Made by a program: the position numbers and the translations under genes
Source of the DNA: a virus
Length of the DNA stretch: 64,000 bases
Reading direction: 5' to 3' (one strand)
Virus record (IMG/VR): IMGVR_UViG_3300042090_002405
Span: 17,288 to 81,287 of that record
Shown: piece after piece, positions 50,502 to 63,160 of the stretch
Layout of the letters: each line of letters starts with the position of its first letter
Numbering within the stretch: position 1 is the stretch's first letter
Notes under the pieces: model-generated
What the model saw: the letters and a program-made list of their open reading frames with translations, nothing else
Databases searched by the model: none
Told to the model about the DNA's origin: nothing

Positions 50502-51851
50502 TCAGCCGGCCGACTGAGGCGCCATGATCGTCGGCAGGTTGGTCTGGCAGTACGCCTTCCACCCGCCGGGCATCTCCCAGCCCTTCAGCTTGATCGCGAG
50601 CTTCAGCACACCGCCCTTGAAGACCTCGCGGCAGGTGTTGACGTCCTGCCGAACGAGACCGGGGACGGTATCGAGCGTTTGCTCGAGCATCTGGTTCTGA
50701 ATTCCGGCAGTGAGCGGGGACGTCGGCACCGAGTTGGAGCTAGAGGCCGAAATCCCCGTGTTGCACGTGAGGTTCACGTCCGCACTAATGTTCGTGCCGA
50801 GAGGCTCGTTTGTGATCGTGAGGGCCTCGAGCATGGATGCCTGGTGCACGGCGTCCTGCGCGACGAAGAGCATCCCGATGGGGATACCGCGCTCGAGGAA
50901 GCACGGGCTCTCCACGGGGCGATACATCTGCCCGCGGCACCCGTACCCCTGCCACCGGAGACCGCCCCAAGTGACCGGCGCGAGATCGTAGTCGCGGGTC
51001 GGGTGGAAGATGCCGACGTTCAGCACATTGGCAGGCGCCGTGGCGTTTCCGCTGTAGCCGACGCTGCCGACGCGGCGATGCGTGACCGGCAAGAAGATCG
51101 TGCCGGATCCCTTTGCGCGGTAGTTCGCGTTGACCTGCGCCACGTACTCGATCACGGGGACCTCGGACGTGCCGGACGCCATGGCGTCCGCGAACGAGCC
51201 GAAGTAGGAGACGTCCGCGGCGAGCTCGTTCAGCACGAGTTCCCTCTGCGACGTCTTCCATTGGAACTGGTAGGCGTTGATGAAGTTCCACCCCGCGCGC
51301 CACACTTCCGAGCCCCACGCGAGATCAGCCGGCGTGAGGACGGTCCCGGCAAACGTACCGACCGGGGGGATCCCCGTTCCGGTGTTGCCACCGAGGGCAC
51401 CGCCAATCTGATCATTGAGCGTGAAGACATCCGGCGAAGGGGGAGGCGTCGTCGTCGTGGCGGGTGCCGCGAAGGCGTTGCCGATCGTCGAGAAGCTCAT
51501 CGGCTCGCAGAACACGTGCACGCCTACGCCCTGCGTGAGGATGTCCGTCTGGAGAATGCCGTTGATCAGGAACGTGCTGTCGATGCTCTGGACGCCCGGG
51601 ACAGACGAAGAGCCCGACAACAGATTGACCGTGTCGCCGAAGGTCGCGGTTGCTTCCTCGATCGTGAGCGGCAAGGGGATCGTCCACACGACCTCCTCGA
51701 TCACGGGAATATTGCCGAAGGAGCAACGAAGGCACTTCTCCGCAGCGCCGAGAGTCCCGGGGGCTTCCCCGAGACCAAACGGCACGCGGCGCACCTTCTC
51801 GCGATCCTGACCCCACTTCGCGGACTTTTTACCGATAATGGAACGTGACAT
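50502..51851 (-). CDS. Putative large jelly-roll major capsid protein
   Basis: STFLINGILQTDILTQGVGVHV, YRPVESPCFLERGIPIGMLF, LKLAIKLKGWE; strongly GC3-biased codons and its own terminator. Confidence 0.55.
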   Translation of the reverse strand: MSRSIIGKKSAKWGQDREKVRRVPFGLGEAPGTLGAAEKCLRCSFGNIPVIEEVVWTIPLPLTIEEATATFGDTVNLLSGSSSVPGVQSIDSTFLINGILQTDILTQGVGVHVFCEPMSFSTIGNAFAAPATTTTPPPSPDVFTLNDQIGGALGGNTGTGIPPVGTFAGTVLTPADLAWGSEVWRAGWNFINAYQFQWKTSQRELVLNELAADVSYFGSFADAMASGTSEVPVIEYVAQVNANYRAKGSGTIFLPVTHRRVGSVGYSGNATAPANVLNVGIFHPTRDYDLAPVTWGGLRWQGYGCRGQMYRPVESPCFLERGIPIGMLFVAQDAVHQASMLEALTITNEPLGTNISADVNLTCNTGISASSSNSVPTSPLTAGIQNQMLEQTLDTVPGLVRQDVNTCREVFKGGVLKLAIKLKGWEMPGGWKAYCQTNLPTIMAPQSAG

Positions 51852-58387: not shown

Positions 58388-59023
58388 TCAGTCGAGTAGT
58401 CCCTCTTCCGCGAAAGAGAAAAACGATCGTTTATCTTCACTTCCCCCGACGATCAAATGATCAAGCAAGATCACATTGACCGCCTCGAACGCTTTTAGAA
58501 AGGCGTCCGTCGTTTCCTTGTCGGCTTCACTTGGTTCGGCTTCGACACCTGAAGGATGCACGTGCATGAGGATCACAGCGTGCGCACCGTCGATGAGTGC
58601 TGCTTGTAGCGTAGGGACCATCGGGGCCATGGTTGCCGTCGCCTCCCCTCGGCCTGTTTCCGCCACAGACTTCATTCGCAGATGTAGATCGAGTGTGATG
58701 AGTCCGAAGACCTCATTTACCTCGTCGCCGATCGCATCCTCGATGAGCTCGAAGGCCTTCTCTGGAGTGTTCAGCGGTCCAATCTTGTCAGCGAGCGCGT
58801 TGCACGCCGCGAATCGCGCCGGGTCCTTATGTACAACGAGAAACGGCCGGCACTTCGAGTCGGGGCCCGCCGAAAGCACCACTGGCTCAACGTCGTCCGG
58901 CCGGTGCGGCGCGACCGTTTCGGCCACCCGGCGCGCCTGAGCGGGCTCATGACACCCGCACTCTGCACCAATGCGACGTCGCTTCTCGCCGACCGCGACG
59001 AGGTTGTAGGACTTCCGTTTCAT
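58388..59023 (-). CDS. radC: RadC-like JAB/MPN domain protein
   Basis: E.F.LITLD...AVILMHVHPSGVEAEPSEADKETT...LLDHLIVG..FFSFAEEG. Confidence 0.9.
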   Translation of the reverse strand: MKRKSYNLVAVGEKRRRIGAECGCHEPAQARRVAETVAPHRPDDVEPVVLSAGPDSKCRPFLVVHKDPARFAACNALADKIGPLNTPEKAFELIEDAIGDEVNEVFGLITLDLHLRMKSVAETGRGEATATMAPMVPTLQAALIDGAHAVILMHVHPSGVEAEPSEADKETTDAFLKAFEAVNVILLDHLIVGGSEDKRSFFSFAEEGLLD

Positions 59024-60071: not shown

Positions 60072-60311
60072 TCAGATCGTCTTTCCGTTGGGCTCCTTGA
60101 TCCTTAGGTAGCCCTCGCTCGTCTGGTGCCGATCCGCTGCCTGAAGCAAGATCGACCGCATCCATACGCTGATCTTCACGCCGCATTGCTGCGCGCGCTG
60201 ATCTACGTTCCGATATTGCTCCGGCGTCATCTTCAGCGTGACGACCTTAGTTTTCGCGGAGACAGCGGTGTGTGCCATCAGGAGGGAGGCCAATCGGATG
60301 GCCGTCGGCAT
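60072..60311 (-). CDS. RHH regulator
   Basis: KVVTLKMTPEQYRNVDQRAQQCGVKISVWMRSILL. Confidence 0.75.
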   Translation of the reverse strand: MPTAIRLASLLMAHTAVSAKTKVVTLKMTPEQYRNVDQRAQQCGVKISVWMRSILLQAADRHQTSEGYLRIKEPNGKTI

Positions 60312-60386: not shown

Positions 60387-60605
60387 GTGACTGGGCACAT
60401 TCGTCGAGGAGATCGCTTCACGGTGGGCTTCGGGCAAGCCATGATCACGGCCCCGCTTCTAGCTACGGGTGCCGCCGCTGGTGAACCGTCGCCGTGGGCT
60501 ATGGCGCTGGCGACGACGGCGTTCGGCGTGGCGACTGGATGGGTGCTCGACGAGGTGTCGCACCGGATGCGCGGCGGCAAAGGTCGAAGAAGCCGAGGAC
60601 GATGA
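60387..60605 (+). CDS. Small membrane protein with the GF motif
   Basis: MTGHIRRGDRFTVGFGQ...TM...basic tail. Confidence 0.55.
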   Translation: MTGHIRRGDRFTVGFGQAMITAPLLATGAAAGEPSPWAMALATTAFGVATGWVLDEVSHRMRGGKGRRSRGR

Positions 60606-61051
60606 CCATGGAACATGTGCGACTTGGAAATCGACGCGTGGCAGGGTTCGATGTCGGCGTGGGGGGCCTCTTCGACATCTTCGGCGGAGGAAGTGGGACG
60701 AGTCCCAATCCGGCCTATCAAGCTACTGCCACGATCACTGGGCAAAAAGTAGATCCGAACGCGCCCCCGGACGCCCCCGCCGGCCCGACAGTCCAGGATG
60801 CTTGCGCCAACATCCCGACTTGGGCCCAAGCCATCGCCGGCTGTTCAAACGCCAACGTCAAACCCGCGCCGGGTCAAAGTGTGGCGACAGCGCCTGCATC
60901 GCCGTTGACATTGTTCTTCGGGGGCGGCGTGGATGCAAACGGCAACCCGATCCAGACCCCGCTCCAATGGCTGGAAGCCCACAAGACAGCGATTGCGATC
61001 GGCGGCGCCGTCTTCGCTGGAATCGTCGTCTACGGGGCCATACGGCGATGA
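60602..61051 (+). CDS. C-terminally anchored virion membrane protein
   Basis: VRLGNRRVAGFDVGVGG...TM+RR. Confidence 0.65.
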   Translation: MTMEHVRLGNRRVAGFDVGVGGLFDIFGGGSGTSPNPAYQATATITGQKVDPNAPPDAPAGPTVQDACANIPTWAQAIAGCSNANVKPAPGQSVATAPASPLTLFFGGGVDANGNPIQTPLQWLEAHKTAIAIGGAVFAGIVVYGAIRR

Positions 61052-61428
61052 CTCTCCAGTGGGGTGGACGTCGCGTGATGGGCTTCGGAATCGGCGAAGA
61101 TTCTGTTGCACCTACGTCCACCGCGGAAACGTCGACGGATACGACGGCCGGGGAACGTACCGGTACGTTCACGCGAACGCACGACGCTGAGACGCCGTTG
61201 ACGGAGCAACAGCGCACCAACATCGTCGACACATGGAGCGCCGCGGCAGGCTACAAAAAGATCGTCCTTCCCGATGGGACTCCCGGGTTTCAGGGACCGG
61301 ACGGAAACCTCCTTCGCGCAAATGGTCTGCCCTACGTTGCCGAAACGCACTTCCCGATCGGGGTCGTCGCAGTTGTAACCATGGTTCTGACTGTCGGGCT
61401 TCTTTACGCAATCACGCCGCGAAGATAA
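61048..61428 (+). CDS. C-terminally anchored virion membrane protein
   Basis: MTLQWGGRRVMGFGIGED...TM+RR. Confidence 0.65.
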   Translation: MTLQWGGRRVMGFGIGEDSVAPTSTAETSTDTTAGERTGTFTRTHDAETPLTEQQRTNIVDTWSAAAGYKKIVLPDGTPGFQGPDGNLLRANGLPYVAETHFPIGVVAVVTMVLTVGLLYAITPRR

Positions 61429-61438
61429 GTCTCTCGTC

Positions 61439-61873
61439 ATGAATACGGTCACGTCCATCGCTCGACTCCTGGTGCGCCCATCTGCCCGAACGATGGGGCA
61501 CTCGGTCGCCGCATTGTCCGTAAAGCAGACACTGCCATCTCTCATCACGACTATAGGGCACGCCTGTACGGTGGCCTGGCTAACGACGGGGGCTTACTGG
61601 CTAGCGTTCGCCGGCCTCGCATGTGACATGCTCGATGGGGCGGTTGCGCGACACCTTGACGTCGTATCCGAGTTCGGTGCGCTCTATGACTGGACGGTAG
61701 ACGTCACGATGGCGGCGATAATTTGCCTCGTTGCGCTGCACGCACCATGGCTCTTGATCGCTTTGGTTCCGATCGCTGTCTGGTGTAAGCGACGAGGTCT
61801 TCGTTTTTCGGGGCGGGCCGCGTTGACGTTGCTTGCGGTAGGTCTAGGGTGGAGGGGCGGGGTGCCGTGGTAA
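61439..61873 (+). CDS. CDP-alcohol phosphatidyltransferase
   Basis: Complete signature DMLDGAVAR-x5-SEFGALYDWTVD within a multi-TM protein. Confidence 0.85.
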   Translation: MNTVTSIARLLVRPSARTMGHSVAALSVKQTLPSLITTIGHACTVAWLTTGAYWLAFAGLACDMLDGAVARHLDVVSEFGALYDWTVDVTMAAIICLVALHAPWLLIALVPIAVWCKRRGLRFSGRAALTLLAVGLGWRGGVPW

Positions 61874-62739
61874 TCCGTCGAGGCGACAAGATCGTACGAG
61901 GGTTCGCCCTCGGCGCCGACGACTCCGTCGACGCTCTCGTCGCGAGCAAGCTGTCGGAGCTCGGTTACGGTTCCGTGTCCGACTTTCAGAAGGCAAAGGG
62001 ACTAACTGTCGACGGCGTTGCCGGGCACGACACCCTGACAGCGATGGGACTCGGGTACCTCTTCGATCTCTCTTCGAGGGGGATGCTTTCTTCGGGGCAA
62101 ACCCAGCTCGAAACGAAAAACACACCGCTTACCCCCGAGCAAGCTGCGCAGGCACTCAGCGAGGGCTACCAGTCCATCACCGGCTCTGTACCGTCCCCGG
62201 ACGTTCTGTCGTTGCTACTCGCGCAGTCCGGGCACGAAACAGCCAACTGGCAAAAGCTCCCCAACTACGCCTTCGGGGGCGTAAAAGCGACATCCGGAAC
62301 GCCCTACGTCCAGGCCTTCGTTACCCCCGAGGGGGATCCGCCGAAACATTACGTGCTGGCTTTCGCGGCGTACCCCACGGCGGCGGCGGGGGCAAAGGCG
62401 TACATCCGAACACTGAAGAACCGATCGGCATGGTGGGACGGGCTTCAGAGCGGCGTCCCGCAGACCTTCGTCGACGCTTTGGTGAGCATCCCCGGAGCGC
62501 TCTACTTTACCGGCAATGCCGGGGACTACCTCGCGAGCATGCAAACCCGCGTGCAGCAATTCGCCGATCTCGCAAAAGAGTACGCAAGGCCACTCGCGCG
62601 GCCCGCTCAGGCGGCCGCCGCGGTCGTTGCGCCGTACATCGCGCCGATCGTGCAAAACCCAAAACGTGCACTTGCGGTCGCGGCGGGGGTCGTGGCGGTC
62701 GCTACCGCGGCGGCGTGGATCGCGACTCGTCGCCGGTAG
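61867..62739 (+). CDS. Membrane-anchored PGBD + GH73/FlgJ-like muramidase
   Basis: FQKAKGLTVDGVAGHDT; AQSGHETANW..YAFGGVK..FAAYPT..YFT; C-terminal TM+RRR. Confidence 0.8.
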   Translation: MVIRRGDKIVRGFALGADDSVDALVASKLSELGYGSVSDFQKAKGLTVDGVAGHDTLTAMGLGYLFDLSSRGMLSSGQTQLETKNTPLTPEQAAQALSEGYQSITGSVPSPDVLSLLLAQSGHETANWQKLPNYAFGGVKATSGTPYVQAFVTPEGDPPKHYVLAFAAYPTAAAGAKAYIRTLKNRSAWWDGLQSGVPQTFVDALVSIPGALYFTGNAGDYLASMQTRVQQFADLAKEYARPLARPAQAAAAVVAPYIAPIVQNPKRALAVAAGVVAVATAAAWIATRRR

Positions 62740-62758: not shown

Positions 62759-63160
62759 CTAGTTCTCGGCGGCCATCTCCGCCGGATGCAAAAACGCCCC
62801 GATCGCGCAGCACCCGACCGCATCAAGCTCCGGCATCTCTACGACGAGCCAGAAGGCGATCCCGTCCCGCGGAAGCTGCATCTTCTTGTGCGCAGACTCT
62901 CGTGCGAGAGGATGGATCTTTTTTTGTGTGTCAGTCCAGCGGCGGAACGCTTGCTCGATATATGCCGATCGCGAGAATGCCTGGAAGCCGTCCGCATCCT
63001 TCGTGTCGCGCGCGACGACGACGAGCACGATGTCAGGGGTACCAAAGTGCTGGCGCGCTTCGCGGTACGCCTTGAGCAAATCATAAGGCGGGAGCGCTTC
63101 GGCGATCTCCTTCATCTGGGGGGAGGTGCCGGGGGCGAGAATGAGTTCCGTCTTGGTCAC
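62759..63160 (-). CDS. Hypothetical protein
   Basis: GTGA overlap with the upstream RHH remnant. Confidence 0.6.
   Translation of the reverse strand: MTKTELILAPGTSPQMKEIAEALPPYDLLKAYREARQHFGTPDIVLVVVARDTKDADGFQAFSRSAYIEQAFRRWTDTQKKIHPLARESAHKKMQLPRDGIAFWLVVEMPELDAVGCCAIGAFLHPAEMAAEN

Follow-up and report, generated by a model that had tools for sequence, protein, structure and literature searches.

The membrane-associated lytic enzymes of phage PRD1 are the P7 transglycosylase and the P15 muramidase, and to our knowledge no lipid-synthesis gene is known in PRD1, PM2 or other described membrane phages. According to a review, phages lack lipid-biosynthesis machinery, and those that contain a membrane take up host lipid selectively by unexplained means (PMC6356626). 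A literature search returned no report of CDP-alcohol phosphotransferases (CDP-APs) encoded by phages or other viruses. Solved CDP-APs available for comparison include the Methanocaldococcus jannaschii PSS (7POW/7B1K), Staphylococcus aureus PgsA (7DRJ/7DRK), AF2299 (4O6M) and the PIP synthases 5D92 and 6H53. In canonical CDP-APs the TM4-TM6 half contributes to the acceptor and lipid pockets, as in the AF2299, PIPS and PgsA structures, and we know of no solved CDP-AP without TM6.

The window analysed here, 64,000 nt in length, comprises bases 17288-81287 of an 81,287-bp IMG/VR record (G000; CheckV completeness estimate 98%). Near its 3′ end lies an ORF encoding a small membrane protein of the CDP-AP superfamily (Table 1), for which M19 is an alternative start, the form in which the protein is entered in the ESM Atlas. 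The preliminary description of this DNA claimed a complete CDP-AP signature for the ORF, and this is indeed present from D63 to D88 in the form D63-M-L-D66-G67-A-V-A70-R71-(8 residues)-G80-A-L-Y-D84-W-T-V-D88, which contains every position of the family pattern DxxDGxxAR..G..xxxD..xxxD. When the window was scanned with a degenerate DNA pattern for the signature, only this match was obtained. The ORF product scores 41.8 bits against PF01066 (gathering cut-off 22, E = 1.8e-10), with the match confined to profile positions 3-91 of 152, and a search of the whole record likewise gave a single PF01066 match (E = 1.4e-11). An hmmsearch of the PDB with the family profile retrieved M. jannaschii PSS (7pow, E = 1.6e-11), and hhalign against a PgsA-like alignment (A3) gave a probability of 96.9%, the aligned part being TM1-TM3. 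Judged by these matches, the ORF product is a genuine member of the CDP-AP superfamily with all catalytic residues; the structure model described below, with five helices, departs from the six-TM core (TM1-3 plus TM4-6) of the superfamily.

Table 1. Features of the window virus and of related loci discussed in the text; positions without a contig or locus prefix are those of the window
Feature	Position	Strand	Remarks
Major capsid candidate	50502..51848	-	Relatives on IMG/VR contigs
RadC-like JAB gene	58388..59023	-	In conserved block
NikA-like ribbon-helix-helix gene	60072..60311	-	Last gene of syntenic block; divergent from + operon
Small membrane protein, first gene of + operon	60387..60605	+	C-terminal '..ATGWVLDEV..RGR'; 'GWVIEE..' counterparts in relatives
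149-aa tail-anchored GF-motif protein	60602..61051	+	End overlaps next gene's start (ATGA)
126-aa tail-anchored protein	61048..61428	+	N-terminal RRxxGFxIG; stop 10 nt before CDP-AP ATG
Mini CDP-alcohol phosphotransferase (CDP-AP) gene	61439..61873	+	144 aa; 126 aa from ATG 61493
Catalytic-signature DNA	61625..61702	+	D63xxD66G67xxA70R71-x8-G80xxxD84xxxD88
Tail-anchored peptidoglycan hydrolase	61867..62739	+	PG_binding_1 + GH73/glucosaminidase-like; earliest possible start GTG 61849
Terminator-like hairpin	62879..62914	+	14 pairs + T run, ~140 nt after hydrolase stop
Tail-anchored SLT-like protein of group members	L019:14146-14811		Also L020, L028
Mini CDP-AP paralogue, MAG G032 (L068)	C18:613898-614233
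Mini CDP-AP paralogue, MAG G032 (L069)	C18:963865-964218
Mini CDP-AP paralogue, MAG G032 (L070)	C19:895439-895726
PgsA-like loci, IMG/VR contigs			L232, L243, L272, L237, L280, L228, L255, L263, L286, L208, L210, L241

Exhaustive searching of 1.84 billion representative proteins with phmmer yielded 191 matches at E ≤ 1e-3, 44 of which have E ≤ 1e-10. Among the 150 matches listed, nearly all are 100-185 aa in length and align to query residues 28-138, and the longer ones are extended at the N-terminus, not the C-terminus; the closest non-self match, 52% identical, is of the same short form. The family surfaced only in this search, a word-index homologue search with the protein having found no match. 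Similarly, no family was found in PHROGs, no match was obtained by tblastn against 50,697 GenBank phage records, and related-locus searches of viral and genome contigs with either the protein or the profile built from its homologues (A1) revealed no usable relatives or conserved stretch. A scan with profile A2 matched one giant-virus contig. The nearest neighbour in the ESM Atlas, a 134-aa CDP-AP cluster in which 55% of taxon-labelled members are viral, can be taken as a lead.

Alignment of 42 homologues, each 31-50% identical to the window protein, shows G40, D63, D66, G67, A70, R71, G80, D84, D88 and R126 to be invariant and P33, T37 and S124 nearly so, and the proteins end 10-20 residues past the SGRA helix. 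Members can be recognized by a core of ∼110-125 aa that ends after helix 5, a P-x3-T-x2-G motif in TM1, the full signature, and S-x-R before helix 5, all of which are found in the window protein (A1 profile score 150.9 bits). The protein thus belongs to an undescribed "mini" clade of CDP-APs with a ∼115-aa core of five helices, no TM6 and an SGRA motif of its own, and the pattern of conservation indicates that the catalytic half of the clade is under strong purifying selection. In the TM1 of the PgsA set there is an invariant Arg (R13, in P-x3-T-x2-R), the place of which, going by motif register, is taken in the mini clade by an invariant Gly (P33-x3-T37-x2-G40). The REIxISALREWM and GKxKT motifs of PgsA TM4-TM5, which are invariant in A3, are absent from the 42-member alignment.

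The preliminary description took the protein for an ordinary synthase of PGP, PS, PI or cardiolipin-type lipids, an assignment which the five-helix form of the protein and its scores against the NCBIfam equivalogs do not bear out. The cut-offs of these models (PgsA, PssA, PIP and AIP synthases, CAP-type cardiolipin synthase) range from 107 to 350 bits and the scores of the protein from 13 to 35, the individual values being 29.6 versus 109.1 bits for PgsA (TIGR00560), 25.4 versus 107 for type II PssA (TIGR00473), 26.7 versus 170 and 35 versus 180 for the PIP and archaetidylinositol-phosphate synthase models (NF045883 and NF040950), and 17.1 versus 240 for CAP-type cardiolipin synthase (NF053678). 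Identity with an ordinary host pgsA or pssA was rejected, given equivalog scores far below cut-off and a C-terminal half that cannot be aligned to PgsA.

Virus-encoded genes of the same superfamily are also found in giant viruses (GVMAG, IMG/VR), and the signature occurs on dozens of IMG/VR contigs. The giant-virus genes, as seen at 80 loci of at least 119 matches, are of canonical length, AT-rich and in some cases paired with CdsA; none of the 80 loci scores as mini (at most 49 bits versus 95-103 for mini members) and, unlike the CdsA-paired genes, the window virus has no CdsA. Full-length PgsA-like genes (182-198 aa, with E. coli-type motifs) are present on IMG/VR contigs of 10-107 kb (Table 1), and may be either genuine pgsA genes carried by phages or host DNA that flanks proviruses.

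Structure prediction with AlphaFold2 from the family alignment gave a model with a mean pLDDT of 88, and of at least 95 over residues 30-130, in which helices span residues 28-50, 53-73, 78-99, 105-118 and 125-135, the last being only 11 residues long. The top rows of a Foldseek search are all CDP-AP structures, with weak E-values. The best 18 rows obtained with VIA-align are also all CDP-AP entries (Z 7.2-9.2, ∼110 residues aligned), with unrelated helical bundles scoring Z 7.0 or less, but such Z values can be attained by helical bundles by chance, so that the claim of homology leans on the sequence profiles as well. Model residues 26-139 cover residues 1-151 of 185 in PgsA (7drk_B) and residues 24-165 of PIP synthase, a span that corresponds to TM1-TM5 of the solved enzymes. 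Both sequence alignments (PDB hmmsearch and hhalign) end after TM3, and TM4, the R-x-S-G-R-A segment and helix 5 constitute a clade-specific C-terminal half. Counts of Lys and Arg in the loops predict an N-in topology, which would place the Asp cluster at the cytoplasmic face, where the solved enzymes also have it, and a homodimer prediction with two copies of residues 23-144 scored 0.41 against a mark of 0.42. The mini form therefore resembles the solved CDP-APs in its TM2-TM3 signature, TM1-TM5 fold (Z 8-9 over ∼110 residues, within reach of chance for helical bundles) and predicted topology, and differs from them in its ∼115-aa core, the lack of TM6, a shortened TM4-TM5 and the SGRA motif; PgsA additionally differs in its TM1 Arg, by motif register, and in the unalignable C-terminal half. 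Since TM6 is missing and the TM4-TM6 half helps to shape the pockets of canonical enzymes, the activity or substrate of the mini form may differ from theirs.

The mini CDP-AP gene is the fourth in a series of closely packed genes on the plus strand, which diverges from the NikA-like gene. The placement given in the preliminary description, between GF-motif membrane proteins and overlapping the start of a muramidase, is borne out: the CDP-AP stop codon (TAA, 61871-61873) overlaps the GTG start of the hydrolase gene (GTGGTAA), and the products of both neighbours start with a region containing the string RRxxxGFxxG and are anchored by a hydrophobic stretch at the C-terminus. The upstream neighbour begins MTLQWGGRRVMGFGIG and has at its C-terminus a hydrophobic tail followed by RR; it belongs to no Pfam family and was not found at the loci of relatives. 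The downstream ORF (GTG 61849 or GTG 61867) opens ..VVIRRGDKIVRGFALG and its product scores 27.5 bits for PG_binding_1 (cut-off 23), with a weak Glucosaminidase match of its own; homologues at 52-75% identity carry both PF01832 and PF01471, which makes a muramidase/glucosaminidase-type peptidoglycan hydrolase a reasonable annotation, and a PDB sequence search with the protein gave no match. The overlapping stops and starts, together with the terminator after the hydrolase gene, suggest a single operon, of which the hairpin is the probable end. Terminator-like sites are enriched in the 59.9-63.2 kb region (9 found versus 2.3 expected), and no sigma-70-type promoter was found at the locus. The composition of the CDP-AP gene is within the viral range (GC 0.61, GC3 0.68) and its codon adaptation index, 0.576, is the lowest among the genes tested. 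As in PRD1-type phages, a peptidoglycan hydrolase is encoded among small proteins of virion-membrane type.

Relatives of the major capsid candidate of the window virus, 64-78% identical to it, are encoded on 29 IMG/VR contigs, and a block of genes for capsid, core protein, protease, RadC and NikA-like protein is syntenic in 15-27 of these 29 loci. The RadC-like JAB and NikA-like genes, kinds that are usually associated with conjugative elements, are in the conserved block of 15-18 relatives. Past the NikA-like gene the relatives also have a divergent plus-strand operon for tail-anchored proteins, including a counterpart of the first operon gene, and its content otherwise differs from that of the window virus. 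In many relatives (L032-L046) this operon is headed, as here, by a small protein ending '..ATGWV(L/I)(D/E)E..' with a basic tail, which in several is preceded by a tail-anchored protein of 140-190 aa and followed by a protein of 260-330 aa ending '..LIVYYxPR'; no Pfam family was found for the small protein or these flanking proteins.

No PF01066 match was obtained in 27 close relatives, of which 18 have a completeness of 90% or more, and the A1 profile found nothing real in the same 27 (positive control on G000, 9.6e-46). Mini-type genes were detected by an IMG/VR motif scan in three further records, G028, G029 and G031, the "DW" DNA pattern used not being mini-specific, as most of its metagenome matches are canonical-length enzymes. 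G028 (202 kb) and G029 (a provirus) have no gene in common with the window virus beyond one weak generic match each. A long fusion in G028 was considered and rejected, the upstream 300 codons having the appearance of non-coding high-GC read-through. G031 (59 kb, GC 38%) shares with the window virus the capsid protein (45-49%), small capsid protein, protease, core protein, RadC and more, and belongs to the group as a distant member; its mini gene is found 1.2 kb short of the end of the contig, in a position unlike that in the window virus. The structural genes and RadC shared between low-GC G031 (L194-L196, 38%) and the 62%-GC window virus indicate that the group spans hosts of very different base composition. 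The A1 profile found no match in the four nearest relatives of G031 (G033-G036; capsid identity 49-70%, three complete and one at 92%), three of which (G033, G034 and G036) have direct terminal repeats. CdsA and PAP2 genes were looked for in the four carrier viruses and none was found, and Terminase_6N and HK97-capsid profiles gave nothing usable in the same four genomes.

The mini CDP-AP gene is therefore present in two of 33 records of the group and is not one of its core genes. In a poorly resolved tree the window copy is placed near P0002, P0004 and two copies from an 11.2-Mb delta-proteobacterial MAG, and the G031 copy in the other half, such that two acquisitions would most simply explain the two carriers; G028, G029 and P0118 form a separate, well-supported clade. 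The MAG (G032), which is probably myxobacterial, encodes three mini paralogues (Table 1) that are the nearest cellular relatives of the viral gene; their loci have a GC content of ∼0.71 and the ORFs a GC3 near 0.9. Two of the paralogues are in paralogous cassettes with a common protein of 417/468 aa that belongs to no known family, one mini copy is followed by a PP2C phosphatase gene, and the third copy is frameshifted in the assembly.

A sporadic gene that is absent from related viruses, which the preliminary description had named as a finding that would tell against its reading, is what was observed (none of 27 close relatives and none of the four G031 relatives), and this distribution indicates that a particle of this type can be built without the gene. 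The other such finding, recent capture from a host, is unsupported, since no listed homologue exceeds ∼50% identity, the nearest are mini forms and not housekeeping synthases, and the GC and GC3 fall within the viral range, unlike those of the MAG copies described above. That the enzyme independently supports a lipid-containing virion can no longer be argued, as 31 of the 33 group records lack it; a gene missing from almost all sister genomes provides no evidence for a membrane in this group. Taken as a whole, the enzyme family and the viral membrane-protein context proposed in the preliminary description were upheld, and no support was obtained for its particular lipid products, for a role in lipid supply or for a lipid-containing virion.

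The distribution and sequence of the gene are most likely explained by an accessory head-group transferase, probably catalytically active, through which the lipid of the host membrane is modified in the course of infection. In full, this reading holds that the gene was acquired horizontally and that its active product alters the host membrane in a way that tunes infection, and is not core to virion construction, as the lack of the gene in almost all sister viruses suggests; it is given a probability of about one half. The mini CDP-AP would bind a CDP-alcohol and a divalent metal (Mg or Mn) at the cytoplasmic face of the membrane and transfer the substituted phosphate to a hydroxyl acceptor with release of CMP. 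The virus itself encodes no pathway genes, so the likeliest donor is the CDP-diacylglycerol of the host, from which the phosphatidyl group would be transferred. The invariant R126, with S124, precedes helix 5 at the place of the PgsA GKxKT motif and may bind an anionic group, which suggests that the acceptor perhaps carries one. Translation from one operon with tail-anchored proteins and an anchored hydrolase would direct the enzyme to those parts of the host inner membrane where the viral membrane proteins gather, and head-group composition could shift locally.

A role in virion membrane lipid is possible, and phospholipid might be made or remodelled for an internal membrane of the virus itself, for example as anionic lipid in patches of the future virion vesicle. 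Its neighbours encode tail-anchored proteins that are candidates for the virion membrane, two of the four mini carriers found with the DW pattern in IMG/VR (a scan that sees part of the family) fall in a single jelly-roll capsid group, and on one contig, described below, a mini domain is fused to an anchored SLT lysozyme of the type found in this group. Such an enzyme would also fill a gap in the account of selective host-lipid uptake (PMC6356626). However, 31 of 33 members possess the same structural module without the gene, which consequently cannot be needed for particle formation, the virion membrane in the group is putative, the carriers G028 and G029 share no structural genes with it, and the G031 copy lies next to a recombinase gene rather than among structural genes. 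A lipid supply for the virus's own membrane is accordingly considered unlikely.

It is also conceivable, if improbable, that the CDP-AP and the peptidoglycan hydrolase act together to open the envelope during entry or lysis, with the CDP-AP serving as a membrane platform for the anchored hydrolase, as its regulator or as an enzyme with a lipid-linked envelope precursor as substrate. Translational coupling of the two genes would fit this, as would P0118, a 366-aa protein in which an SLT-like lysozyme domain is joined to a mini CDP-AP domain. The lysozyme part of P0118 is 34% identical to a tail-anchored SLT-like protein (Table 1; 22.1 bits for Pfam SLT versus a cut-off of 21.3) encoded in the structural region of three group members (G018, G019 and G026). 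The lysozyme of P0118 thus matches the anchored type of the group, with the mini CDP-AP standing in for the single tail anchor. By analogy, the coupled CDP-AP and hydrolase genes of the window virus may be a two-gene counterpart of this fusion, a hint of the Rosetta-stone kind. This fusion, however, has been seen on a single 1,386-bp contig and may be an artefact of assembly or gene calling. Pfam searches of ten neighbours at five other mini-family loci and of four neighbours of the G029 copy found no peptidoglycan-hydrolase domain in the former and no family in the latter, and at eleven viral loci with distant homologues of the window hydrolase there is no mini CDP-AP within 4 kb. The invariant catalytic residues argue, in addition, against a mere anchor. 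The hydrolase slot is filled by unrelated enzymes in different group members, namely GH73/PG_binding_1 in the window virus and SLT-like proteins encoded ∼3 kb past the capsid gene in G018, G019 and G026, and no homologue of the window hydrolase is detectable in most relatives. Across 24 neighbour genes of mini members, Pfam identified only a resolvase and a PP2C phosphatase; the G029 copy, as a lead, is also flanked by genes for tail-anchored proteins.

The virus encodes an integrase, and the gene is sporadic in the manner of a moron, lies ∼2 kb from the end of the record and, in G031, adjoins a serine recombinase gene. These features would suit lysogenic conversion or superinfection exclusion, in which altered envelope lipids or a surface glycolipid decorated with a phospho-alcohol would block other phages, but the gene is coupled into an operon of structural/lysis type rather than forming a self-contained cassette that has a promoter and terminator to itself, which makes this explanation a decidedly improbable one. 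A pseudo-enzyme, that is, a small multi-pass protein that has kept the fold for a structural role in the virion membrane, would account for the loss of TM6, the divergent TM4-5 half and the apparent replacement, by motif register, of the canonical TM1 Arg by Gly, yet is very hard to reconcile with eight signature residues that stay invariant at 31-50% identity, a degree of constraint difficult to explain without catalysis or at least the binding of metal and nucleotide.

What is new here is a partly virus-borne clade of mini, five-helix CDP-APs, with a transferase function that is predicted from the conserved residues. With its core of ∼115 residues, the clade would be the smallest form of this family of membrane enzymes and would reveal which half of the six-helix CDP-AP fold is dispensable. 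A broader and doubtful proposal is that viruses rich in tail-anchored proteins, and probably possessing an internal membrane, have repeatedly recruited a minimal five-helix CDP-AP that makes a particular lipid head group in the patch of the future virion membrane, the repetition being suggested by two separate acquisitions in the capsid group and one fusion to an anchored lysozyme. If this were true, the enzyme would be the first case of a phospholipid head-group synthase encoded by a phage, and would offer a mechanism for the selective lipid make-up of membrane-containing phages. A head-group transferase borne by a phage among anchored proteins makes the question of how phages select their lipids directly testable.
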